Of a DNA stretch of 64,000 nt, positions 709 to 39,338 are shown piece by piece. The translations under genes and the position numbers were made by a program. A model generated the notes under the pieces. That model did not search any database. It was not told the DNA's origin and saw only the letters and a program-made list of their open reading frames with translations. Source of the stretch: Anaerolineaceae bacterium (lineage in GTDB: Bacteria > Chloroflexota > Anaerolineae > Anaerolineales > Anaerolineaceae); assembly GCA_012797695.1 (NCBI GenBank), contig JAAZOQ010000233.1:2897-66896 (forward strand), given 5' to 3'. Every line of letters begins with the position of its first letter. Within the stretch, counting starts at the first letter, position 1.

Positions 709-2271
709 ATGAGTTTAAGTGATGAAATCTGGCAAACTTTAAAATTTTCGGATCAAGACATCGAAAGTCTCTATAACCACCTTCTTGAGATTGAATCCCC
801 ACAAACACTTTCAGAATTAACTGATTTCCTGGTTCGCAAGAAAATCGAACAAGAGAAGAAAAAAGCAACCCAGGCTCTTAAAGCAGAGGGAAACCTTTAT
901 TTTCCCAAGGATCAATATAAAAAAGGTCAAGAATTATTATTTCCGAGCCGTGATTTTCAAAAAGGAAAGATCGTTGCCGTCCGTGATGGAATCTCTCCTG
1001 ATTACCCTGAGTTGCAGGTGATCACGGTAACTTTCACAGGCGATGAACAGCTCGAATTTGCCAGTAATCTCTCTGATCATGCACTGAATACTTATACGCC
1101 GAAAGAAGAAACAGAACAGGCCTACCAGCCAGATTATGTTCTGGAAACATACGGCAAAACCCTCATTGGCAAATTATCAGAATTAGTGTCAACCAATGAA
1201 GACCTGATCAGCATCGGTGGAAGTTATTTCCCCCGATCTCTACTCGTGGACATCGGTGTTGGATATCTGAATCTGGCTGAAGCCGTCCTGGAAATGGCAG
1301 AAGGCGGACCTCTTTCTACGCCCGATCTGATTCAGCAAATTGAGCTACCTACCGATACCAATGCCAAGTTGACTGAATTTTCCATGAACTATGCGCTTCA
1401 GGAAGATCCACGTTTTGACGAGGTGGGGCCAGCTGGAGAAACTCTGTGGTTCCTCAATCGCTTGGAGCCAGATGAAGTCCGCAATGTGCCCATCATGCTT
1501 CAATATACTGGTGAACCGGTGACTCTCCCTGAAGAAATTGAGAAATTCGTAGATTTTGGTCCTGAGTTTTGTGATGAACTCGAGCCAAATTATCAATGTG
1601 ATTCCGTTGACGACGTTACCATCAGCTTAACCTATCCCCATTGGCGGGCAGGCACTCTACCGCTGACCGGCAAACTGCAAAAGCTTTTCCCCACTGCCTA
1701 CGAGACCCCGCGCATCAAATTCACTTTCCACAACGGGGATTCAGACGAAACTTTCAACGGCTGGGTGGTCCGCCCCTCACACTACATCTCGGGGTTAAGC
1801 AACTGGTACACCACCGAAGGGTTCATTCCAGGCAGTCAAGTTCATATTTCCCGCAGTGAAGTCCCTGGTGAAGTAATTATCAGCGCAGATAAAAAGCATA
1901 ACTCCAAGGAATGGATTCGCACCTTCCTGGTGGGGGCAGATGGCAATTACGTGTTTGCCCTGCTTAAACAAGTAGTTACTTGCTCATTTGACGAGAGAAT
2001 GGCAATTGCCATCCCGGATGTCAAAGCAATCGATGCCATCTGGGAAAAATATGCCAAAACCAAGCCACAACTTGAAAAGATCATGCAGATTATGATGCGT
2101 GAACTGGCCAAGCTCAATCCTCAGGGGCATGTCCACGCTCAAGAATTATATGCGGCAATAAACATTGTCAAACGCTGCCCGCCCTCGCCAATTATCAATA
2201 TCCTTTTCAACTGTCCCTGGGCGACTCACATGGGAGATCTGTACTTCCGCCTGGATGATTCAAATTCATAA
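709..2271 (+). CDS. hypothetical protein, 520 aa, no domain recognised
   Basis: Long ORF with ATG start and even composition; antisense ORFs are short. Confidence 0.6.
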   Translation: MSLSDEIWQTLKFSDQDIESLYNHLLEIESPQTLSELTDFLVRKKIEQEKKKATQALKAEGNLYFPKDQYKKGQELLFPSRDFQKGKIVAVRDGISPDYPELQVITVTFTGDEQLEFASNLSDHALNTYTPKEETEQAYQPDYVLETYGKTLIGKLSELVSTNEDLISIGGSYFPRSLLVDIGVGYLNLAEAVLEMAEGGPLSTPDLIQQIELPTDTNAKLTEFSMNYALQEDPRFDEVGPAGETLWFLNRLEPDEVRNVPIMLQYTGEPVTLPEEIEKFVDFGPEFCDELEPNYQCDSVDDVTISLTYPHWRAGTLPLTGKLQKLFPTAYETPRIKFTFHNGDSDETFNGWVVRPSHYISGLSNWYTTEGFIPGSQVHISRSEVPGEVIISADKKHNSKEWIRTFLVGADGNYVFALLKQVVTCSFDERMAIAIPDVKAIDAIWEKYAKTKPQLEKIMQIMMRELAKLNPQGHVHAQELYAAINIVKRCPPSPIINILFNCPWATHMGDLYFRLDDSNS

Positions 2272-2276
2272 GGAAA

Positions 2277-2717
2277 ATGATCATGTCAGACAACAAGCCT
2301 CATTTCAGTTTGATCAAACCTACTCTCGATACCCCTTTTCACATTGATTTCGACTGGTGGAAAGGACATGACAGCAACTGGCGCGTTTTTCTCAAAGATT
2401 GTCTGTGCCCAGAACATCAGGCGGCTTTTGCCAATCAATCTGAAAGCGGCATGATCGATTGGGTTGATCCCGAAACCGCCGAAGTTCATCAAGTGGATGG
2501 GTTGCAGTCTACTCTCATGTCACATTGTGCCAAAGAGCCAGGTTTTCTTACCCAAAATACCGCAATGATCGATGCCCTTTTCCGCGTCTTTCTCGCCACT
2601 GGAAACAGCCCGATGACCCCCAAAGAACTTTCCGAACGGATCGGCAAACCGGCAGATACCATCTTGCGTACGATCTCTGGTGTGCAGGTTTATAAAGGTA
2701 TTCGCCCGGTACAATGA
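2277..2717 (+). CDS. hypothetical protein, 146 aa
   Basis: ORF begins 5 nt after the previous stop with AAGGAAAA upstream; no recognisable motif. Confidence 0.55.
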   Translation: MIMSDNKPHFSLIKPTLDTPFHIDFDWWKGHDSNWRVFLKDCLCPEHQAAFANQSESGMIDWVDPETAEVHQVDGLQSTLMSHCAKEPGFLTQNTAMIDALFRVFLATGNSPMTPKELSERIGKPADTILRTISGVQVYKGIRPVQ

Positions 2718-2805
2718 TATTTCGTTTCCCGCTAAGGATCACAACAGAGACTCTGTGAAGGATTCTCCATAAACGAAATCTTGTGTATTATAATAATCAC
2801 CGTTT

Positions 2806-2878
2806 GCCCCCGTAGCGCAATGGACAGAGCACCAGCCTTCTAAGCTGTTGGTTGTGGGTTCGACTCCCACCGGGGGCG
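2806..2878 (+). tRNA. tRNA-Arg (anticodon TCT)
   Basis: Cloverleaf read by hand: acceptor GCCCCCG/CGGGGGC, anticodon loop CTTCTAA, T-arm GTGGG-TTCGACT-CCCAC; CCA not encoded. Confidence 0.9.
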
Positions 2879-2904
2879 CTAGTTTACCTATTTGAAATGA
2901 TCCT

Positions 2905-4977
2905 ATGGTGGGCAAGATGAAACCTGTTAGACTTTTTAACCATATTCACCAATGGCTTTCTTCCCTTTCGACACAATTTAGTTTTTTGAGCGGATTTGCA
3001 CTTGCGTGGGTTGCGAAAGATCAAGTTTTAAACAATCTAGCGGGTTATTTACCAAAATTTCTGGCCTTGCGATTACCCACTTTAGGAGGAAAAGTTTTCT
3101 TGCTAATACTTTTCCTCGGAATATTTACATTTTTAATCCAGCTACTAATTCATTTTTTCAGAAAACTATTCCCTGTTTTCTTCTACCGTCTGTTTTCTAT
3201 TTCTAGCAAAGAACCTTCGATTCTTAAAACAGCAATTTCCTATTTCTGTGGCTTTTCCACCATTCTAATTGCCATTTTCTTTTTAAAAAATAATGGAAAC
3301 ACAGTGAAGGAACTATTCCTTTTAAACCCAATAGTTCTACCAATTTTATTACTCTGGCTGGTAATATTAATAATTTTTCCTATCTCAAATTTTATTGTTC
3401 AGGTAAATCCCAATTCAACTTCAAAAGTTAGTTCCACCCTTCAGAGGCTTAGAAAAGTCTCCCCAGTATTGATCCTTCTAGCTTCATTTGTCTTTGTTTT
3501 CCTTTTGTTTGGATCGTTACTTAAAGCCAAATTTGGAGTAATTGACGACCATGAAATCATCCGATTTCTTGGGCCAGATAAGAAGCTTGGAATCAATGAA
3601 ATCTTCTTGGAACTAAAGAAAACTGAGGTGGGAAACTTTGGCTCACTTGAACGTTTTCGGCCAGTATATTATTTTCTACGATTACTTGAGTGTGTTATCT
3701 GGGGTGCACACCCAGAATTGTGGTACCTAGCACGGATTATATTGTTGACAATTTCGATCGCCACCACCTGGCATTTATTAGCCCAATTTTCTGGGTTCTT
3801 TACATCCAGCGCAATCACGGCTTATCTTTTAACGCTCCCTCTGTGGGTAGGAATATTTGGACGATTAGGTCCCAGTGAAGCTTATATTGCGGTAGGGTTA
3901 CCCATTTACATCTGGGGTTTCTTAGCGCTTCTTCATGAAAAACTTCCTAAGCGAAAAAGTTGGTTAGCAAACATTGCAATTATTTTTGGAACAATTGTGT
4001 GCGTTGGCTCAAAGGAGAACCTAGTAATCCTGATAATTCCTTCAACATATTTATTTTTTACTGGGCTGAGAAAAAGGAATTTTCTGTCAATTCTGTCTTC
4101 GGTAATCAGCGACCTGGCCTGTGCCTTTGTCGGCATCGCAGTATTTACCTTAATAAACAAAAATGGCACAGATGTTTATGGCATGAGCGTGTCGCCAATT
4201 CAACGTTTTTTAGCGTTATTTTTAACCTATAAATCAATCTTTGCAAACCCACTTTTTTATATCGGATTGCTTTTTCTCCTTTATCTTCTCCTTCTCGCTG
4301 CGTTCAGAAATTACAAAACTATATCTACCAATGTTCTCCATAGTTTTATAGCACTCTTAATAATTGCAAGTTTTGTTTTCAGTCAAATGTTCTTCTATCA
4401 AGGAAGTTGGCCGCTTAACAGCCGATATGACTATCCAGGAATACTTTACCTTCCCGCTATTGTCATCATTTTACAAAAAACAATAACCACTATCGTTTCT
4501 GAAAAGATTCCTAATCTCCCCACTTCTTCTGTTGCTATTTGTGTAAGTCTGGGTCTGCTTTTACTTACTTTTTCAAGAGGATACCAATCAATTCTCTCGA
4601 CAAATATATCAACTGTGGAAACAACCAATAATTTTGCTAATAAAGTAAACTCAATCATTGAATCAGCTAAATCGCATCCAGAAGACATAATTGTTTTAGA
4701 AAGCAGCAATGTTTGGGATTATGAACCAATTTTTAGTTATCAAATCTATTTAGTTAATTCCAGCGTCCAAAATCCAATCACCTTACGAATCCATAATTAC
4801 TCTCCTGATTCGGTCGAAAAAGGGTTAGAAGTGGAATTAGCCCAAGAGTTAAGTAAGCTTAGCCAAATTGGGGATAATAGGTTTCAATCAATCTCAACTT
4901 TGGAAAAATATGGTTCAGATTGTATATCGGTCATGATATCGGCTGAAACAGAAACAAATTGTTCTATCGAAAAATAG
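2905..4977 (+). CDS. large polytopic membrane protein, possibly a GT-C-type glycosyltransferase (tentative)
   Basis: 690 aa with more than 12 hydrophobic segments, a DDHE loop motif and a C-terminal soluble region; visibly AT-rich compared with its neighbours. Confidence 0.7.
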   Translation: MVGKMKPVRLFNHIHQWLSSLSTQFSFLSGFALAWVAKDQVLNNLAGYLPKFLALRLPTLGGKVFLLILFLGIFTFLIQLLIHFFRKLFPVFFYRLFSISSKEPSILKTAISYFCGFSTILIAIFFLKNNGNTVKELFLLNPIVLPILLLWLVILIIFPISNFIVQVNPNSTSKVSSTLQRLRKVSPVLILLASFVFVFLLFGSLLKAKFGVIDDHEIIRFLGPDKKLGINEIFLELKKTEVGNFGSLERFRPVYYFLRLLECVIWGAHPELWYLARIILLTISIATTWHLLAQFSGFFTSSAITAYLLTLPLWVGIFGRLGPSEAYIAVGLPIYIWGFLALLHEKLPKRKSWLANIAIIFGTIVCVGSKENLVILIIPSTYLFFTGLRKRNFLSILSSVISDLACAFVGIAVFTLINKNGTDVYGMSVSPIQRFLALFLTYKSIFANPLFYIGLLFLLYLLLLAAFRNYKTISTNVLHSFIALLIIASFVFSQMFFYQGSWPLNSRYDYPGILYLPAIVIILQKTITTIVSEKIPNLPTSSVAICVSLGLLLLTFSRGYQSILSTNISTVETTNNFANKVNSIIESAKSHPEDIIVLESSNVWDYEPIFSYQIYLVNSSVQNPITLRIHNYSPDSVEKGLEVELAQELSKLSQIGDNRFQSISTLEKYGSDCISVMISAETETNCSIEK

Positions 4978-29785: not shown

Positions 29786-29859
29786 GGGCGGGTAGCTCAG
29801 TTGGTTAGAGCGCCTCTCTTACACAGAGGAGGTCGCAGGTTCGAGTCCTGTCCCGCCCA
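29786..29859 (+). tRNA. tRNA-Val (anticodon TAC)
   Basis: Acceptor GGGCGGG/CCCGCCC, anticodon stem CCTCT/AGAGG with loop CTTACAC, T-loop TTCGAGT. Confidence 0.9.
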
Positions 29860-29938: not shown

Positions 29939-30334
29939 GGGGATGAAAGGCTTCGACGGGCGAGGCTGATCCCGGAATGCGTGCCGAGAGGTACCGACCT
30001 CGTTAACTCAGTACAAACCTTTAAGTGCCAATCGCACAAACACCTACGCAGCTCTTCCTCTCGCCGCCTAGCGTCGAAGGATCCTGCGCCTGACACCTCG
30101 GTGTCACGTCTGTCTGCTCCGCTCTCTTACCGGTAGCAGAACAGGCGTCACAAAGTAAGAGTGCCGCAATTCAAGCCGCGAGGATTGCGAAAGAGGGCTT
30201 TCGGGCCTGAGCGGATGGTCAACATCGGGTTCTGTGACTCTTCCTGACGCTGACGACACTCAAGAGGCTCTACGCATGTAGATTTCCGAGGGTTGAATCG
30301 TTCGGACGCGGGTTCAATTCCCGCCATCTCCACC
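29939..30334 (+). ncRNA. ssrA: tmRNA (SsrA), one-piece
   Basis: 5' GGGGATG pairs with 3' CATCTCC-A-CC; T-arm GCGGGTTCAATTCCCGC; internal tag frame ending ...ALPLAA-TAG. Confidence 0.88.
30027..30071 (+). other. tmRNA tag reading frame encoding ANRTNTYAALPLAA then stop
   Basis: GCC resume codon after TTTAAGT, 14 codons, TAG at 30069-30071; the hydrophobic LAA end is typical of proteolysis tags. Confidence 0.7.
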
Positions 30335-30335
30335 T

Positions 30336-30375: not shown

Positions 30376-33617
<3,242 letters not shown>

Positions 33618-33738: not shown

Positions 33739-34104
33739 ATGTCTGGTGGAAAAATTGTTGCCATTATTGCAGCGGTTATCCTGATCCTGTTTGGAGCCTT
33801 AATGATCCTCGGTGGAACCAATTCCGCCGCCGGGGCGATTGGCTGGCTGCCCGTTGGGATCGTCTTTATTGGGATTGGATTAGTCATCATCTATTTTGCG
33901 ACCCGTCAGGCCGCCAAGGCAGCGGATAACAACGTCACCCTGAAAATAGACCTGCCAGGGAATGTATCCATGGATACCTTAAAATGCAAAAGCTGCGGGG
34001 GAACGCTGCAGCCAGAAAATATTCAAATGGTCGCAGGCGCTCCGGTAGTGACCTGCCCTTATTGCCATACGACTTATCAATTAACTGAAGAACCAAAATG
34101 GTAA
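33739..34104 (+). CDS. small membrane protein (2 TM) with a C-terminal zinc ribbon
   Basis: Two hydrophobic helices then CKSCGG...CPYCHTTY; GGAGG SD 4 nt upstream. Confidence 0.6.
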   Translation: MSGGKIVAIIAAVILILFGALMILGGTNSAAGAIGWLPVGIVFIGIGLVIIYFATRQAAKAADNNVTLKIDLPGNVSMDTLKCKSCGGTLQPENIQMVAGAPVVTCPYCHTTYQLTEEPKW

Positions 34105-34131
34105 GCGTTTATCTATCTCTGGGAGGGACGA

Positions 34132-35859
34132 ATGAAACATCTTAGGTACGTGTGTTTATTGCTGATTTTCGTTGTGCTGGCTGGGAGTGTTACCCCTGTT
34201 CATGCGCAAGATTATCGCTTCCAGGTACCAGAAGAATCTGCAGTTGTCACGATCAACACAGACGGTTCAATCTCAATCGATTATTCGATCACTTTTAATA
34301 ATGATTCTGGAGCGCATGCCATCGATGTAGTCGATATCGGCATGCCAAACTCAGATTACGTCTTGAAATCCATCACGGCCTCTGTGGATGGTTATCAGCT
34401 TAGCCGTATTACCAAGTCAGATTACGTCGATCCGGGGATTTCTGTTTATCTGGATAACCGCGAAATTCCCGCCGGGGGAACAGGCACGCTGGCGGTCCAC
34501 GTAGGCACGGTCAACAACGTGATCTACCCGGCGACACAAACGGAATCAGAAAGCTACGCCAGCTTCGTCTTCTCGCCCAACTGGTTCGATAGTCAATACT
34601 GCTATGGAGATACCAACCTGCAGGTTACCCTCCTGCTGCCGGCTGGATTGCAATCCGCTGAAACCCGCTATTACACCCCCGAAGGGGGATGGCCTGGGCC
34701 AGATGAGCCCGAATCCAAAATTATGGAAGACGGGAAAATCTTCTTCACCTGGGTTTCAGATCAAGCCAATGCCTATACTGAATATAAGTTTGGAACCAGC
34801 TTCCCGGCCCGAGTACTGGCAGAAAATGCCATCGTCACTTCCCCTTATACCGGGCCAGGTACTTCTTCCACTTCTTCTTCCGGCTCAGATGGAATCAGCT
34901 TCGATACCAGTGCCATCTGTCCTTTTATCTTTTGTTTGGGCTTCATTGGTTTCTTCATCCTGATCATCTACTCTGCCACGGTCGGAGCCCAAAAACGCAA
35001 GATGCAATATCTGCCTCCAAAAATCTCGATGGAGGGACACGGCATTAAGCGCGGGTTGACGGCAGTAGAAGCAGGGATTTTGATGGAACAGCCTATGGAT
35101 AAGATCATGACCATGATCTTGTTTGGCCTGCTCAAGAAAAATGCTGCGGAAGTAGTAACAAAAGAGCCGCTGGCAGTCAAAGCAGCCGATCCGCTGCCCG
35201 CTGACCTGTATGGTTATGAGACAGATTTTCTCAGTGCCTTTACCTCGACTTCTTCTTCTGAAAAGCGCAAATTGCTGCAAAAGATGATGGTCAACCTCAT
35301 CCGCAGTGTCGGTGAAAAGATGAAGGGCTTCAGCAAGAAAGAGACCGTTGCCTTTTATCAAGATATCATGAAACGTGCCTGGGAACAGGTCGAGCAAGCC
35401 GCTACTCCAGAAGTCAAGGGACAGGTTTACGAAGACGTAATGGATTGGACCATGCTCGACAACGATTACGAGAAACGCACCACCCAGACTTTCAGCGGGC
35501 CAGTATTCATTCCGACTCCAAGCTGGTGGTGGCGTTACGAACCCAGCTATCCACGGACGGTTTCCGCGGCTCCAGTTTCCACCGCAGGGTCCTCCACTTC
35601 GTCAGGGAGCGGTGGACGGGTATCGCTGCCTTCACTCCCGGGTTCCGCGTTTGCCGCCTCTGTCGTGGGCAGTGTTCAGAATTTCTCGACCAACGTATTG
35701 GGGAATCTGACCTCTTTTACCAGCGGTGTAACCAACGTCACCAATCCACCCCCACCTCCCTCCACTTACCGCAGTTCTGGTGGCGGCGGTGGAAGTTCTT
35801 GCGCCTGCGCTTGTGCCTGTGCGGGATGTGCCTGCGCCTGTGCTGGCGGTGGCCGCTAA
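34132..35859 (+). CDS. DUF2207-like single-pass membrane protein with a C-terminal (Cys-Ala)n tail
   Basis: Signal peptide ending VHAQ; N-terminal DYRFQVPEESAVVTINTDGSISIDYSITF and post-TM GLTAVEAGILME...ILFGLLKK resemble DUF2207 signatures; ends GGGGGSSCACACACAGCACACAGGGR. Confidence 0.7.
   Translation: MKHLRYVCLLLIFVVLAGSVTPVHAQDYRFQVPEESAVVTINTDGSISIDYSITFNNDSGAHAIDVVDIGMPNSDYVLKSITASVDGYQLSRITKSDYVDPGISVYLDNREIPAGGTGTLAVHVGTVNNVIYPATQTESESYASFVFSPNWFDSQYCYGDTNLQVTLLLPAGLQSAETRYYTPEGGWPGPDEPESKIMEDGKIFFTWVSDQANAYTEYKFGTSFPARVLAENAIVTSPYTGPGTSSTSSSGSDGISFDTSAICPFIFCLGFIGFFILIIYSATVGAQKRKMQYLPPKISMEGHGIKRGLTAVEAGILMEQPMDKIMTMILFGLLKKNAAEVVTKEPLAVKAADPLPADLYGYETDFLSAFTSTSSSEKRKLLQKMMVNLIRSVGEKMKGFSKKETVAFYQDIMKRAWEQVEQAATPEVKGQVYEDVMDWTMLDNDYEKRTTQTFSGPVFIPTPSWWWRYEPSYPRTVSAAPVSTAGSSTSSGSGGRVSLPSLPGSAFAASVVGSVQNFSTNVLGNLTSFTSGVTNVTNPPPPPSTYRSSGGGGGSSCACACACAGCACACAGGGR
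35800..35844 (+). repeat. imperfect TGY-GCN hexanucleotide repeat encoding CACACACAGCACACA
   Basis: TGC GCC TGC GCT TGT GCC TGT GCG GGA TGT GCC TGC GCC TGT GCT read in the frame of the 34132 gene. Confidence 0.9.
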
Positions 35860-35876
35860 AGAAAGCATCTTATTTT

Positions 35877-37241
35877 ATGTCAGTAAAGAGTTCTTTCGCT
35901 CGATTGGCTCATCGTTCACCAGTGGCAGCATTGCCTGCCACTGGTGTCTACCATTTTCTGCGTGAATCCGACGCCGAAAAAAGCCGCATTCACCTGCGTC
36001 TCGATCCGGATGGCACAGGAACTCTGATCATCAATGCCAATCGCATCTTTCACTTGAACCCCACAGCGGCCCTGATGGCTTATTACTCGCTTGCCCGTAC
36101 TGACGAAACCGCTGCCGTGAAAGCCTTCGAAAAGCAATATCAGGTCAGCCGCAGTCAAGCGCAGCAAGATTTTGCTCAATTCCGTTCTGAACTGGAAGCA
36201 CTGATCTCGCCAGAGACCTGCCCCATTTGCGATCTTGATCTTGAAACAACTGCACCATTCAGCAGTTCACCCACAGCGCCCTATCGAATGGATCTGGCCC
36301 TGACTTATCGCTGCAATAATGCCTGCGCTCATTGTTATAACGCTCGCTCACGAAATTATCCGGAATTAAAAACCGAAGATTGGTACCAGATTCTGGATCG
36401 TCTCTGGGAACTGGGAATTCCCCACATCGTTTTCACGGGCGGGGAACCTACCCTGCGTGATGACCTTCCAGAATTGATTCACCATGCCGAGCAGAATGGG
36501 CAAATCACCGGTCTGAATACCAATGGTCGGCGTATGAAAGACCCGGTTTACGTGCAGCAATTGATCGATGCTGGTCTGGATCACGTCCAGATCACCCTCG
36601 AAAGTCACCGCGCTGAGATTCACGACAAAATGGTCAACGCGACTGGCGCCTGGCAAGAAACTGTCGCCGGGGTCAAAAATGCAGTGAATTCCCGGCTGTA
36701 CGTGATGACCAACACCACGATGCTGAAATGGAATGCTCCTTTTCTGACCGACACGCTGGAATTTTTGGGGCAACTGGGGTTGAAAACCGTAGGGCTGAAT
36801 GCCTTGATTTATTCAGGGCGAGGCAAAACCGTGGGTACCGGCCTCTCCGAGTCAGAACTAATGCCGCTTCTCGACATCGCCAAGCAAGTCACCGAAAAAT
36901 ATAAGCAAAGATTGATCTGGTACACTCCCACAGAGTACTGCCATTTCGATCCGGTGCAAATGCAGTTGGGAGTCAAAGGCTGTACTGCAGCCCTGTATAA
37001 CATGTGCATCGAACCTGATGGCAGCGTGATCCCCTGCCAATCCTATTATCAAAGTCTGGGAAAACTGCTCGAGAATTCTTGGAATTCCATCTGGAACCAC
37101 CCACTCTCACAAAAGTTGCGCAACCGCCAGGGATTGCCTGAAAAATGTCATTCCTGCCTGCTGGTGCAGGAATGCGGCGGCGGCTGCCCGTTAAAATTCG
37201 AGTCTATTTCATTTGAAAGCTCTTCACAGGAGGGTTTATGA
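35877..37241 (+). CDS. radical SAM/SPASM enzyme with an N-terminal PqqD-like RiPP recognition element
   Basis: CNNACAHC (CX3CX2C), FTGGEPTLR, SPASM cysteines C..C.....C...C (CHSCLLVQECGGGC) and upstream GCTAA...PDGSVIPC; N-terminus LIINANRIFHLNPTAALMAYY...SQAQQDFAQF is PqqD-like; start chosen as the first ATG after the upstream stop. Confidence 0.85.
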   Translation: MSVKSSFARLAHRSPVAALPATGVYHFLRESDAEKSRIHLRLDPDGTGTLIINANRIFHLNPTAALMAYYSLARTDETAAVKAFEKQYQVSRSQAQQDFAQFRSELEALISPETCPICDLDLETTAPFSSSPTAPYRMDLALTYRCNNACAHCYNARSRNYPELKTEDWYQILDRLWELGIPHIVFTGGEPTLRDDLPELIHHAEQNGQITGLNTNGRRMKDPVYVQQLIDAGLDHVQITLESHRAEIHDKMVNATGAWQETVAGVKNAVNSRLYVMTNTTMLKWNAPFLTDTLEFLGQLGLKTVGLNALIYSGRGKTVGTGLSESELMPLLDIAKQVTEKYKQRLIWYTPTEYCHFDPVQMQLGVKGCTAALYNMCIEPDGSVIPCQSYYQSLGKLLENSWNSIWNHPLSQKLRNRQGLPEKCHSCLLVQECGGGCPLKFESISFESSSQEGL

Positions 37242-38401
37242 AAGTTCGCATTCGCTCGATTTTCGATAAATTATTCTTCACTCCCAAGCCATTTCCTCCT
37301 GGCAATTACCAAGCCACCCTTACCAACGAAGATGGCTCGCCATTGCGGCTGCATCTGCGGGTTGAGAAAGATGGTTTGGGCTTATTGATCGTCAACGCCT
37401 CCACCATTCTTCACCTCAATCAAACTGCGACCGAGATCGCATATCATCTCATTCAAAATACCCCAGCAGAAGAAGCCATTCAGGAAATGCTCAAACGTTA
37501 TCGTTCGAGCTACACTGAAATCCACGATGACTTCAAGAACATGAAGATCCGCCTGACCTCCCTGCTGAACACCCCCGATCTTGACCCCGAAACTTTTCTG
37601 GATATCGAACGCGTTGACCTGCACGGACAAGAAATCTCTGCTCCCCTGCGCCTGGATTGCGCGTTAACTTACCAGCTTTCCAGCGGGGAAGCCAGCATCT
37701 ATGCCCCAACGGATCGGGTAGCCCGTAACCTCGACAGCGAGGAATGGAAAAAGATTCTGGAAAAAGCCTGGGCAGCTGGAATTCCGCACATCGTTTTTAC
37801 CGGCGGCGAGCCCACGCTGCGGCCAGATCTACCCGAACTGATCGAACATGCAGAACAATTGGGGCAAGTCACCGGGGTAATCAGCGATGGCTTACGCTTC
37901 ACAGAAAAAGATTATCTCGAGTCGCTCTTAAAAGCCGGTCTGGACCACATTCTCTTTATCTTGAACCCGGAAGAAGAACATTCCTGGGAAGCTTTGCGGG
38001 ATGTACTCGGAGAAGACGTCTTTACCACTGTCCATCTCACGGTAACTGCAAACAGACCTCTGGATGCCAGTTCCCTGCTGCCAAAGCTCTCTGAAATGGG
38101 AGTGAATTCACTCTCTCTCAGCACAGATGAACCAGAGATGCAAAAAACACTGGCTGCCATTCAACAAAAGGCCACCGAAAATGGTTTCACGCTGGTCTGG
38201 GATCTGCCAGTACCCTATTCCAGAAACAACCCCATCAGCCTGGAAATGGAATCCGCGGAATCACACAAAGAAGGAGCAGGCCACACCTGGCTCTACGTGG
38301 AACCGGATGGTGAAGTATTACCCGGTCAGGGCATCAACCGGGTGCTCGGCAACTTCCTGACCTCTGAATGGGAAGAAATCTGGCTGAACGCACGGAAATA
38401 A
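37238..38401 (+). CDS. pseudo-radical-SAM paralog (RRE + TIM-barrel core, all Fe-S cysteines lost)
   Basis: Aligns by eye with the upstream gene (GIPHIVFTGGEPTLR.DLPELI.HAEQ.GQ.TG, AGLDH) but has LTYQLSSGEASIY in place of LTYRCNNACAHCY and no SPASM cysteines; ATGA overlap with the upstream stop. Confidence 0.75.
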   Translation: MKVRIRSIFDKLFFTPKPFPPGNYQATLTNEDGSPLRLHLRVEKDGLGLLIVNASTILHLNQTATEIAYHLIQNTPAEEAIQEMLKRYRSSYTEIHDDFKNMKIRLTSLLNTPDLDPETFLDIERVDLHGQEISAPLRLDCALTYQLSSGEASIYAPTDRVARNLDSEEWKKILEKAWAAGIPHIVFTGGEPTLRPDLPELIEHAEQLGQVTGVISDGLRFTEKDYLESLLKAGLDHILFILNPEEEHSWEALRDVLGEDVFTTVHLTVTANRPLDASSLLPKLSEMGVNSLSLSTDEPEMQKTLAAIQQKATENGFTLVWDLPVPYSRNNPISLEMESAESHKEGAGHTWLYVEPDGEVLPGQGINRVLGNFLTSEWEEIWLNARK

Positions 38402-39165
38402 TGGCCTTTTCTCTCGATCAATGGCACGCAAGGTACCTTGAGCAGGCGCAATGGACTGCCCCCTTGCGTGCTTTTCTTTTGCAGCAGCTTTCGTTACCTG
38501 CTCAGGCGCGCGTGCTCGAGACTGGATGCGGTACTGGTGCACTCTTCCCGAATAGGTCACAACTCAGCAATTATGAATGGTACGGCATCGATATCGCACC
38601 CGAGCGTTGTGCCTTTGCTCAAAAAGGAAACCCTGCCGCCATTATTTCTTGTGCAGAGGGCATTCGCTTGCCCTTTGCGAATGCCACGTTTGACCTCACC
38701 TTCTGCCATTATTACCTGCTGTGGATGAATAACGCTGCGCTGCCGGCTCTGCGGGAAATGGCGCGGGTTACCCGGCCAGGGGGTTACGTGATGGCCATGG
38801 CTGAGCCAGACTATGCTGCCCGCATCGACTTCCCGGCAGAAACCGCACAACTTGGGCAACTGCAAAACTCTTCCCTGCAGAAACAAGGAGCCGCACTGGA
38901 TATGGGGCGGCGATTACCCGAACTGTTTCGCCAGGCGGGGATCAGCGAAATTCAGTTTGGACAGAGCGGTTTTCAGCGCGAGGTCACGGGGACGCCGCAA
39001 TGGCTTGATTCTGAATGGAAAGTAATCGCTCAAGACCTGGCAGACACCCTCCCCCCTCAAGAAATTGCTCACCTAGAACGTCTGGATCGCCAACACTGGC
39101 AGAAAGGCAGCCGGGTGTTGCAGATCCCAACTTTCTATGCTTATGGCAAAGTGAAAGCTGAGTGA
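38401..39165 (+). CDS. class I SAM-dependent methyltransferase
   Basis: Motif I VLETGCGTGAL, post-I WYGIDI, RPGGYV; ATG shares a base with the upstream TAA (TAATG). Confidence 0.8.
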   Translation: MAFSLDQWHARYLEQAQWTAPLRAFLLQQLSLPAQARVLETGCGTGALFPNRSQLSNYEWYGIDIAPERCAFAQKGNPAAIISCAEGIRLPFANATFDLTFCHYYLLWMNNAALPALREMARVTRPGGYVMAMAEPDYAARIDFPAETAQLGQLQNSSLQKQGAALDMGRRLPELFRQAGISEIQFGQSGFQREVTGTPQWLDSEWKVIAQDLADTLPPQEIAHLERLDRQHWQKGSRVLQIPTFYAYGKVKAE

Positions 39166-39265: not shown

Positions 39266-39338
39266 GGGGGCGTGGTGTAGCGGCTAACATGCGGCCCTGT
39301 CAAGGCCGAGATCGCGGGTTCGAACCCCGTCGCTCCCG
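39266..39338 (+). tRNA. tRNA-Asp (anticodon GTC)
   Basis: Acceptor GGGGGCG/CGCTCCC, anticodon stem CGGCC/GGCCG with loop CTGTCAA, T-arm GCGGG-TTCGAAC-CCCGT. Confidence 0.9.

Follow-up and report, generated by a model that had tools for sequence, protein, structure and literature searches.

Enzymes that join a radical S-adenosylmethionine (radical SAM, rSAM) core to a SPASM domain and a peptide-recognition domain have mostly been described for natural products that are secreted and variable, and for a few cofactor pathways. In the sactipeptide and ranthipeptide systems, such as SkfB/SkfA, AlbA/SboA, CteB/SCIFF and PapB/PapA, an rSAM enzyme with an N-terminal RiPP recognition element (RRE; RiPP, a peptide made by the ribosome and modified after translation), a CxxxCxxC motif and a SPASM domain stands beside a hypervariable Cys-rich core carried by a precursor of 30-60 aa. 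Closest in logic to a cross-link that is made within a protein and not released is the pair QhpD/QhpC, in which an rSAM/SPASM enzyme cross-links a subunit of quinohemoprotein amine dehydrogenase through thioethers (PMC8172795). Here we analyse a stretch of 64,000 nucleotides from an Anaerolineaceae bacterium of the Chloroflexota (assembly GCA_012797695.1, contig JAAZOQ010000233.1, positions 2,897 to 66,896 of the forward strand; hereafter the window), where machinery of the same kind is coupled to a single invariant 19-residue Cys-Ala motif at the predicted cytoplasmic end of a conserved membrane protein. We suggest, with a probability of roughly 55%, that this tail is a conserved core peptide and the substrate of a dedicated modification cassette that includes the adjacent rSAM maturase.

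The window locus shares with the sactipeptide and ranthipeptide systems the combination of RRE, CxxxCxxC, SPASM domain and neighbouring Cys-rich core; it differs from them in that the presumed substrate sits at the C-terminal end of a membrane protein of 575 aa, in that neither a leader peptidase nor an exporter accompanies it, and in that the core is invariant across phyla. Moreover, the window enzyme lies under all the NCBIfam cut-offs of those families. With QhpD/QhpC it has in common a SPASM enzyme and the Cys residues of a protein that would retain the modification. QhpC, however, is a subunit that is small, soluble and periplasmic, whose links run from Cys to Asp/Glu and which has a quinone cofactor, whereas here we find an alternating Cys-Ala tail, assigned to the cytoplasm, and no dehydrogenase genes in Pfam and NCBIfam scans. 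A third group of systems, namely PqqE/PqqA, MftC/MftA, GeoRSP and the haloarchaeal pseudo-SAM/SPASM pairs (TIGR04303, TIGR04347), likewise unites PqqD-type recognition with an rSAM/SPASM enzyme, and GeoRSP and the haloarchaeal systems combine, as the window does, a true rSAM with a paralog that lost the SAM cluster. The similarity to this third group remains far below the corresponding cut-offs (99-126 bits vs 381-525), the substrates are others and the accessory genes of those systems are absent. Literature searches on the tail string, on Cys-Ala RiPPs, on SPASM enzymes with membrane-protein tails and on DUF2207 with radical SAM returned nothing relevant. The components are thus of known kinds, while the type of substrate, the Cys-Ala motif, the breadth of its distribution and the membrane-protein family are absent from Pfam, NCBIfam, PADLOC and the searched literature.

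The tail is encoded at 35800-35844 of the forward strand as TGC GCC TGC GCT TGT GCC TGT GCG GGA TGT GCC TGC GCC TGT GCT, which translates to (Cys-Ala)4-Gly-(Cys-Ala)3, residues 557-571, in frame with the open reading frame (ORF) of the membrane protein. This ORF ends in ...NPPPPPSTYRSSGGGGGSS-CACACACAGCACACA-GGGR-stop or, with more of the pre-tail sequence included, in ...TNPPPPPSTYRSSGGGGGSS-CACACACAGCACACA-GGGR-TAA, the TAA occupying 35857-35859; NPPPPPSTYR-SSGGGGGSS lies on the 5' side of the tail and GGGR, followed by TAA, on its 3' side. Reading 35800-35859 confirmed the description given by the first-pass annotation, that is, a Cys-Ala tail with mixed synonymous codons (TGC/TGT for Cys, GCC/GCT/GCG for Ala), a Pro-rich and Gly/Ser lead-in and a GGGR-stop ending, and its remark that the DNA is not a pure microsatellite also held. 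Since Tandem Repeats Finder detects no DNA repeat between 35500 and 36000 at a score of at least 30, the microsatellite reading was dropped. Across all frames of the window this tail is the only Cys-x run of more than three units, and seven Cys alternating with seven Ala cannot be an accident of composition.

A whole-protein homology search, blind to the tail, yielded 3712 relatives at E<=1e-3; among the best 120 of them (50-98% identity, mostly from metagenome-assembled genomes, MAGs, of Anaerolineae) the identical 19-residue ending CACACACAGCACACAGGGR is present in 119, the exception being one Gly-to-Ser change. All 19 of the 19 tail columns are invariant in an alignment of 31 sequences whose mean column identity is 64%, and the 90% cluster to which the window protein belongs has the same tail in 11 of 11 members. 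The variation in length between strains that had been envisaged for the imperfect repeat is therefore not found; within that cluster the sole C-terminal polymorphism is a Gly/Ser linker 7 residues longer in P0396, which argues that the slippage-prone, variable element is the linker and not the Cys-Ala core. The same conservation emerges at the codon level: 85 canonical tails from other genomes correspond to 85 distinct DNA sequences whose synonymous differences average 11.5 per 57 nt, close to saturation of the synonymous sites, and which show zero amino-acid changes, in a comparison where 13 of the 19 residues were preset by the search pattern and the leading CA unit and the GGGR-stop were left free. 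The proposal of the first-pass annotation that selection acts on the peptide rather than on a DNA repeat is borne out by these data, and so is the expectation that orthologs would keep the tail.

To explore the wider family, 1.84 billion 50%-cluster representatives were searched with a profile, which gave 1075 members at E<=1e-3. Among the best 150 of these 1075 representatives, 118 end in a Cys-x tail, the remainder being fragments or frameshifts and one Asp/Gly/His-tailed protein. The latter, P0254 (334 aa), has the cytoplasmic domain, and an Asp/Gly/His-rich repeat (DGGHDSGYDGGH...) replaces its Cys tail. The residue between the Cys across the 118 Cys-x-tailed representatives is Ala in 579 cases and Val in 7, with no other residue found. 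The spacer is as constrained as the Cys, and these tails are therefore better explained as an enzyme substrate than as a simple site for metal.

One genome for each GTDB species was searched with a degenerate DNA pattern for (CA)3-G-(CA)3, which matched at least 120 loci. The tail pattern occurs in at least 120 species genomes, mostly of Chloroflexota (Anaerolineae), where Ornatilinea apprima P3M-1 and Leptolinea sp. HRD-7 are cultured carriers. Its other bacterial carriers belong to the Planctomycetota (Thermoguttaceae, Pirellulales), Acidobacteriota, Aminicenantes, Sabulitectum/Hyd24-12 (Fermentibacteria), Zixibacteria, Coatesbacteria, Hydrogenedentes, Clostridia and Syntrophothermus, together with one deltaproteobacterium, and the Asgard archaea are represented by Heimdall-, Hod- and Promethearchaeota. 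Among the matches listed, the motif stands at the extreme C-terminus, with GGG-R-stop (once GGGV) after it, in every case but locus L097.

Two forms of the tail can be distinguished. Form A, (CA)3-5-G-(CA)3-GGGR, stands behind a conserved segment, LPGxxFA...FTxxVTxxTNPxP, and a linker of Ser/Gly; form B, (CA)3-G-(CA)4-GGGR, follows FGDVAxSFAGWxENTMG...DLSGxDxxTGxxFxAL and a Gly linker, and is carried by Planctomycetota, Hydrogenedentes, Proteobacteria and part of the Chloroflexota. More distant members show the variants CACACAC[AVD]SCACACAGGGR, (CA)5GGGR and (CA)3GGGR, and three-block tails such as CVCACVSCACVCACVSCACACAGGGAG occur in archaea, where L124, L125 and L126 have some Val in place of Ala and end in GGGAG, GGGAR or SGGGGVG. 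Judging from the sequences, the two Cys-Ala blocks seem to be joined by a turn at the central Gly or at the [AVD]-[GS] pair; a hairpin would not be obligatory, as turn-less variants exist.

The linkage of the tail to an rSAM gene was counted over the 120 listed loci, the form-A count requiring at least 1.5 kb of flank. In form A the gene directly downstream of the tail gene encodes an rSAM homolog at about 85 of the 91 loci with flank (a strict filter gave 83, with L084 and L119 dropped solely by its overlap rule), and a homolog of the small membrane protein that opens the window cassette lies directly upstream in 61 of the 67 loci with enough upstream sequence. The gene order of the window cassette is repeated on the contig of a 53%-identical homolog. 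In form B the order is permuted to small protein, rSAM/SPASM enzyme, CxxxCxxC-less paralog, tail protein and methyltransferase (MTase), and this holds for 7 of 7 loci with upstream sequence. The association also appears in the reverse direction, the tail protein being directly upstream of both of two sampled rSAM homologs (64-66% identity), and adjacency of the two genes spans more than 10 phyla, Asgard archaea included. Of the adverse situation named by the first-pass annotation, in which similar tails are widespread and have no rSAM association, the first part is indeed observed and the second is not.

The accessory genes are distributed less uniformly. The cysteine-less pseudo-rSAM is present in the Chloroflexota form-A loci and absent from the Asgard, Zixibacteria, Coatesbacteria, Acidobacteriota and Fermentibacteria loci, and the form-A loci outside the Chloroflexota, Asgard ones included, lack it and have the MTase; unlike the window's pseudo-rSAM, the degenerate paralog of form B keeps SPASM-like cysteines (CxxCx5CxxxC). 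An MTase homolog belongs to the cassette of most two-block ...GGGR systems, including the Asgard and form-B ones. In the archaeal three-block loci the genes for small protein, tail protein and rSAM/SPASM enzyme are all retained, and no MTase is adjacent. Since only accessory genes vary among lineages, the universal core consists of small protein, tail protein and rSAM/SPASM enzyme. A link between the MTase and the terminal Arg was considered and abandoned, as the three archaeal loci have no adjacent MTase, yet one of them ends in ...GGGAR, which leaves no clean rule. Scored against the window rSAM, the enzymes of form-B Anaerolineales reach 366-379 and those of form-A Asgard archaea 376-442; because the latter outscore the former, enzyme similarity tracks tail form and not taxonomy. 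Two tail proteins are found with a single enzyme set at L076 (tandem form B), at L102 and L087 (tandem form A) and in one MAG (L025/L068), and one maturase may thus serve several substrates.

The enzyme encoded next to the tail gene in the window has the features of a generic rSAM/SPASM maturase of RiPP type, i.e., CxxxCxxC, a SPASM domain of about 7 Cys and a PqqD-like RRE. Its Pfam matches are Radical_SAM (1e-25), SPASM (5.5e-10) and PqqD (PF05402; 26.1 bits vs a gathering score of 23.4, residues 46-107). The cluster motif CNNACAHC at residues 146-153 (C146-x3-C150-x2-C153) is conserved in 83 of 89 orthologs, and of eight C-terminal Cys, those at 355, 369, 387, 424, 427, 433 and 437 are kept in 83-86 of the 89. 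The best relative in the PDB is SkfB (3.3e-19), a full-length match whose alignment starts at residue 35 and takes in RRE and core, followed by PqqE, CteB and SuiB. None of the named NCBIfam rSAM cut-offs was reached (SkfB, AlbA, PqqE, MftC, NirJ/Ahb, ScmE/F, GeoRSP, HxsC, StsB, WgkB), the scores being, for instance, 126 vs 381 bits for PqqE, 85 vs 300 for SkfB and 99 vs 400 for GeoRSP, and homologs bear only generic names in their sources. PADLOC matches to the rSAMs reflect generic viperin-type superfamily similarity, and a defence-system reading was set aside. The pseudo-rSAM encoded next retains an RRE-like N-terminus and a remnant of the barrel, together with a single Cys, and has neither CxxxCxxC nor the SPASM cysteines; the CxxxCxxC motif is missing in 60 of its 62 homologs as well.

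As regards the tail-bearing protein, the AlphaFold2 (AF2) model comprises a signal peptide (aa 1-25), an extracytoplasmic beta-sandwich (aa 30-225; confidence, pLDDT, about 90), a transmembrane (TM) helix (aa 264-291) with KRK immediately after it, and a cytoplasmic winged-helix-like and helical domain (aa 311-470). The signal peptide, the one TM helix and the following KRK place the tail in the cytoplasm, where rSAM enzymes work; according to the model, the last ~285 residues, tail included, are cytoplasmic and the N-terminal beta-sandwich is outside the cell. A leader-like segment, PGSAFAASVV...FTSGVTNVTNPPP, is modelled as helical at aa 504-537 and the tail as disordered (pLDDT <40). The segment has the invariant residues P503, G504, F507, A508, F518, G524, F529, T534, T537, N538 and P541, and its LPGxxFA...FTxxVTxxTNPxP pattern is also found in Acidobacteriota, Zixibacteria, Coatesbacteria, Aminicenantes and others; we propose it as the recognition sequence for the RRE of the maturase. 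The linker behind it, PPSTYRSSGGGGGSS, differs in length and sequence between orthologs, with its flanks fixed. In essentially all loci the Cys-rich core ends a membrane protein of 520-680 aa.

Pfam, NCBIfam and PADLOC scans assigned the tail protein to no family (Pfam E<=0.01), and Pfam scans of 19 divergent family members (E<=1 or 0.1) gave no family above threshold. The sole trace among these 19 relatives is a sub-threshold match to the DUF2207 N-domain in the form-B protein of L083 (E 0.022, 15.4 bits vs a gathering score of 24.4), so that the DUF2207 (PF09972) label attached to the protein in the first-pass annotation is left unsupported. The two do resemble each other in the signal peptide, the extracytoplasmic beta-sandwich, the TM helix and a cytoplasmic part with a Gly-rich low-complexity end; the cytoplasmic domain and the Cys-Ala tail, in contrast, lie outside the definition of DUF2207. 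A PDB sequence search with the family profile returned nothing below E 0.1. With Foldseek, the beta-sandwich of the full model matches ribophorin I/OST1 and the N-domains of M1 aminopeptidases at a TM score of about 0.24, a generic fold from which we draw no function, and the cytoplasmic domain modelled alone (pTM 0.66) has no PDB fold match below E 1.

Taken as a substrate, the tail protein would present the layout of a RiPP precursor fused to a membrane protein, in which a floppy Gly/Ser linker joins the leader-like segment to an invariant core. The rSAM/SPASM enzyme would dock on the leader-like segment through its PqqD-type domain and, once docked, modify the Cys/Ala core; in Chloroflexota the cysteine-less pseudo-rSAM would probably act as a non-catalytic partner, and the SAM-dependent MTase would probably add methyl groups. 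The most likely products would be several thioether bridges from Cys sulfur to a carbon of neighbouring or opposing Ala, of sactionine or ranthionine type, turning the tail into a rigid cross-linked knot that would be retained on the membrane protein. Observed here are the invariance of the tail, the purifying selection on its codons, its spread over phyla, the linkage of the genes from either side and the domains and cluster motifs of the enzyme; from gene context and homology we infer the identity of the tail as substrate, the type of bond, the roles of the MTase and the pseudo-rSAM and the physiological function. That the tail is an rSAM substrate appears to be the most economical reading because the protein's C-terminus is RiPP-precursor-like and locked to a gene for an RRE-bearing rSAM/SPASM enzyme. 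Between metal or Fe-S binding and serial cross-linking, the two roles offered by the first-pass annotation, the gene context speaks for modification by an enzyme. A covalent reaction involving Cys as well as Ala is preferred to a plain metal site on the grounds that the spacer is constrained, that Ala is a known sactionine acceptor in thuricin CD and ruminococcin C1 (PMC8172795), that a SPASM cluster can bind a substrate Cys, as it does in CteB (PMC8172795), and that PapB, which makes six thioethers on one repeat substrate, offers a precedent (PMC8172795).

Several points weigh against a modification of this kind. The case for a reaction rests on gene context and homology; the substrate would be a 575-aa membrane protein and not a short precursor, and AF2 assigns the tail no structure. 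The system is not a classical RiPP, as the cassette is without peptidase or exporter: the cluster has no short stand-alone precursor with leader and core, an ORF for which the linkage does not call either, and no leader peptidase, and across the loci compared no peptidase, amidase or exporter/transporter is conserved in the cassette (the ABC genes at L125 are not conserved at other loci). The window rSAM is under every NCBIfam equivalog cut-off, the closest being NirJ2 with 139 bits vs 500, and the type of reaction cannot be read from homology since the NirJ/AhbD/PqqE-type scores are far below their cut-offs. Furthermore, no adjacent rSAM gene is found at L004, L007, L025, L028, L042 and L120, L025 being the second tail protein of a MAG whose L068 locus groups tail protein, rSAM and MTase. 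Finally, CxC-rich tails resemble metallothionein-type metal sites.

This last resemblance leads to the alternative that survives best, which we nevertheless regard as unlikely: the tail might be a metal or iron-sulfur site, a metallothionein-like CxCxCxC on the cytoplasmic face, with the rSAM and the MTase acting elsewhere or building or inserting the cluster. Seven thiols at i, i+2 would fall on one face of an extended strand, a two-residue Ala-Gly turn would, judging from the sequence, pair C7/C10, C5/C12 and C3/C14, and the carriers are all anaerobes, in which free thiolates persist. Known metal-binding Cys runs, however, vary their spacers freely, whereas the one found here is nearly always Ala; moreover, the tail gene is tied to an enzyme with a peptide-recognition (PqqD) domain, and no metallothionein or metal-chaperone family was matched in the Pfam and NCBIfam scans. 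Less probable again is the idea of a sacrificial scaffold, from whose residues the rSAM and the MTase would build a small molecule or cofactor that is then released, as for PQQ from PqqA, mycofactocin from MftA and the pearlin-type products. The position of the motif at the extreme C-terminus with a fixed GGGR end agrees with it, as do the comparatively good scores of the enzyme against PqqE and the mycofactocin maturase and an invariance across phyla that is typical for cofactor precursors and not for antibiotics; yet the cassette has no conserved peptidase, amidase or transporter, for a single turnover it would be wasteful to fuse the motif to a membrane protein that is large and conserved, and several (CA) units are repeated instead of one reactive pair.

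Radical SAM epimerases with auxiliary clusters, such as YydG and PoyD, are known from the epipeptides and polytheonamides. The strict two-residue periodicity of the tail is the pattern expected of such chemistry, in which every second residue (all Ala or all Cys) would be epimerised to give an alternating D/L peptide, a beta-helix-like rod. We consider this somewhat more doubtful than the scaffold, given that no specific likeness to an epimerase family appears among the listed NCBIfam or PDB matches and that Cys-rich cores beside SPASM enzymes are more often thioether substrates (PMC8172795). As to a functionless low-complexity, slippage-prone repeat at a Gly-rich C-terminus, the low-complexity Gly/Ser linker in front of the tail and the imperfect hexanucleotide repeat in its DNA speak for it, but the constant length in close relatives, a peptide invariant over saturated synonymous sites, the Tandem Repeats Finder result and retention across phyla and domains contradict it so thoroughly that its probability is practically nil.

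The family comprises more than 1000 50%-identity clusters from Chloroflexota to Asgard archaea, and conservation so strong points to a housekeeping-type modification in anaerobes. A bolder and more tentative idea, which we hold with less confidence than the substrate role itself and think somewhat less probable than its opposite, is that of a previously undescribed in-protein modification, common to many anaerobic bacterial phyla and to Asgard and other archaea, that converts (Cys-Ala)n into a new covalent structure. In that case a poly-thioether ladder, radical-made lanthionines or an alternating D/L rod would be possible new structures, and the modified tail would be a built-in prosthetic group or structural element instead of a secreted natural product. 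The system is directly testable with a predicted substrate of ~80 residues, which ends in the tryptic peptide SSGGGGGSSCACACACAGCACACAGGGR, and an enzyme set of two to three genes, and the active rSAM with its cysteine-less counterpart forms a natural pair for studying non-catalytic partners.

The features of the cassette and its surroundings are collected in Table 1. The genes are co-directional, the cassette ends at a tRNA gene, and Rfam and promoter/terminator scans at the cassette revealed no riboswitch or other regulatory RNA.

Table 1. Coordinates of the tail gene, its cassette and related features (window positions unless a locus is named)
Feature	Position	Strand	Remarks
Cassette, whole	33739-39165	+	co-directional
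Small membrane protein, 121 aa	33739..34104	+	first cassette gene; two TM helices, then CxxC...CxxC zinc ribbon
Tail-bearing single-pass membrane protein, 575 aa	34132..35859	+	translation, AF2 model
TM helix of tail protein	34921-35004	+	aa 264-291
Leader-like conserved segment, aa 503-541	35638..35754	+	
Variable Gly/Ser-rich linker	35755..35799	+	length and sequence differ between orthologs, flanks fixed
Core tail CACACACAGCACACAGGGR and stop codon	35800..35859	+	invariant in orthologs
rSAM/SPASM maturase, 454 aa	35877..37241	+	N-terminal PqqD-like RRE; starts 17 nt past tail-gene stop
Pseudo-rSAM paralog, 387 aa	37238..38401	+	start overlaps rSAM stop (ATGA)
Class I SAM-dependent MTase, 265 aa	38368..39165	+	Pfam Methyltransf_11 9.5e-16; no NCBIfam equivalog
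tRNA gene at cassette end	39266-39338		
NAD-dependent DNA ligase (ligA)	31563-33611	-	divergent from cassette
tRNA and tmRNA genes upstream of region	29786-29859, 29939-30335		Rfam
Form-B loci	L002, L009, L020, L046, L050, L055, L059, L064, L067, L070, L076, L083, L091		
Archaeal three-block family members	L124 6001-7566; L125 6001-7653; L126 6001-7662		neighbours include Alba, TBP, Nre
Protein with non-terminal motif	L097, oriented 2155-3309	reverse	~343 aa

The zinc-ribbon Cys of the small membrane protein are residues 83, 86, 106 and 109; its zinc-ribbon Pfam matches are weak, and the NCBIfam and PADLOC scans assigned it to no family. For the rSAM gene, a mechanical ORF of 598 aa with a TTG start (35445-37241, forward strand) overruns the tail gene by 432 nt in another frame, and the real start is most likely the ATG at 35877. 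The MTase may start at the ATG at 38401 instead of 38368, which would remove the 34-nt overlap with the preceding gene.

The protein of L097, from a high-GC genome, comprises a signal peptide, a beta-sandwich and a TM helix; its Gly-rich tail, ...GGGGCACACAGCACACACAGGGR, is followed by 34 more residues (VGCSRKAIG...), the only non-terminal motif among the matches listed, and an rSAM/SPASM ORF lies directly upstream. The extension could be a read-through or a real variant. In a number of loci from MFD long-read MAGs, among them L039, L043 and L072, the tail and rSAM genes are broken into short ORFs, which looks like homopolymer frameshift error of the assembly and not pseudogenisation.

Lastly, ligA adjoins the cassette not only in the window but also at the Anaerolineae loci L019, L023, L034, L043, L045, L049, L066, L096, L102, L106, L108, L110, L112, L115 and L118, and the cassette therefore appears to occupy a stable position in the core genome and not a mobile island.

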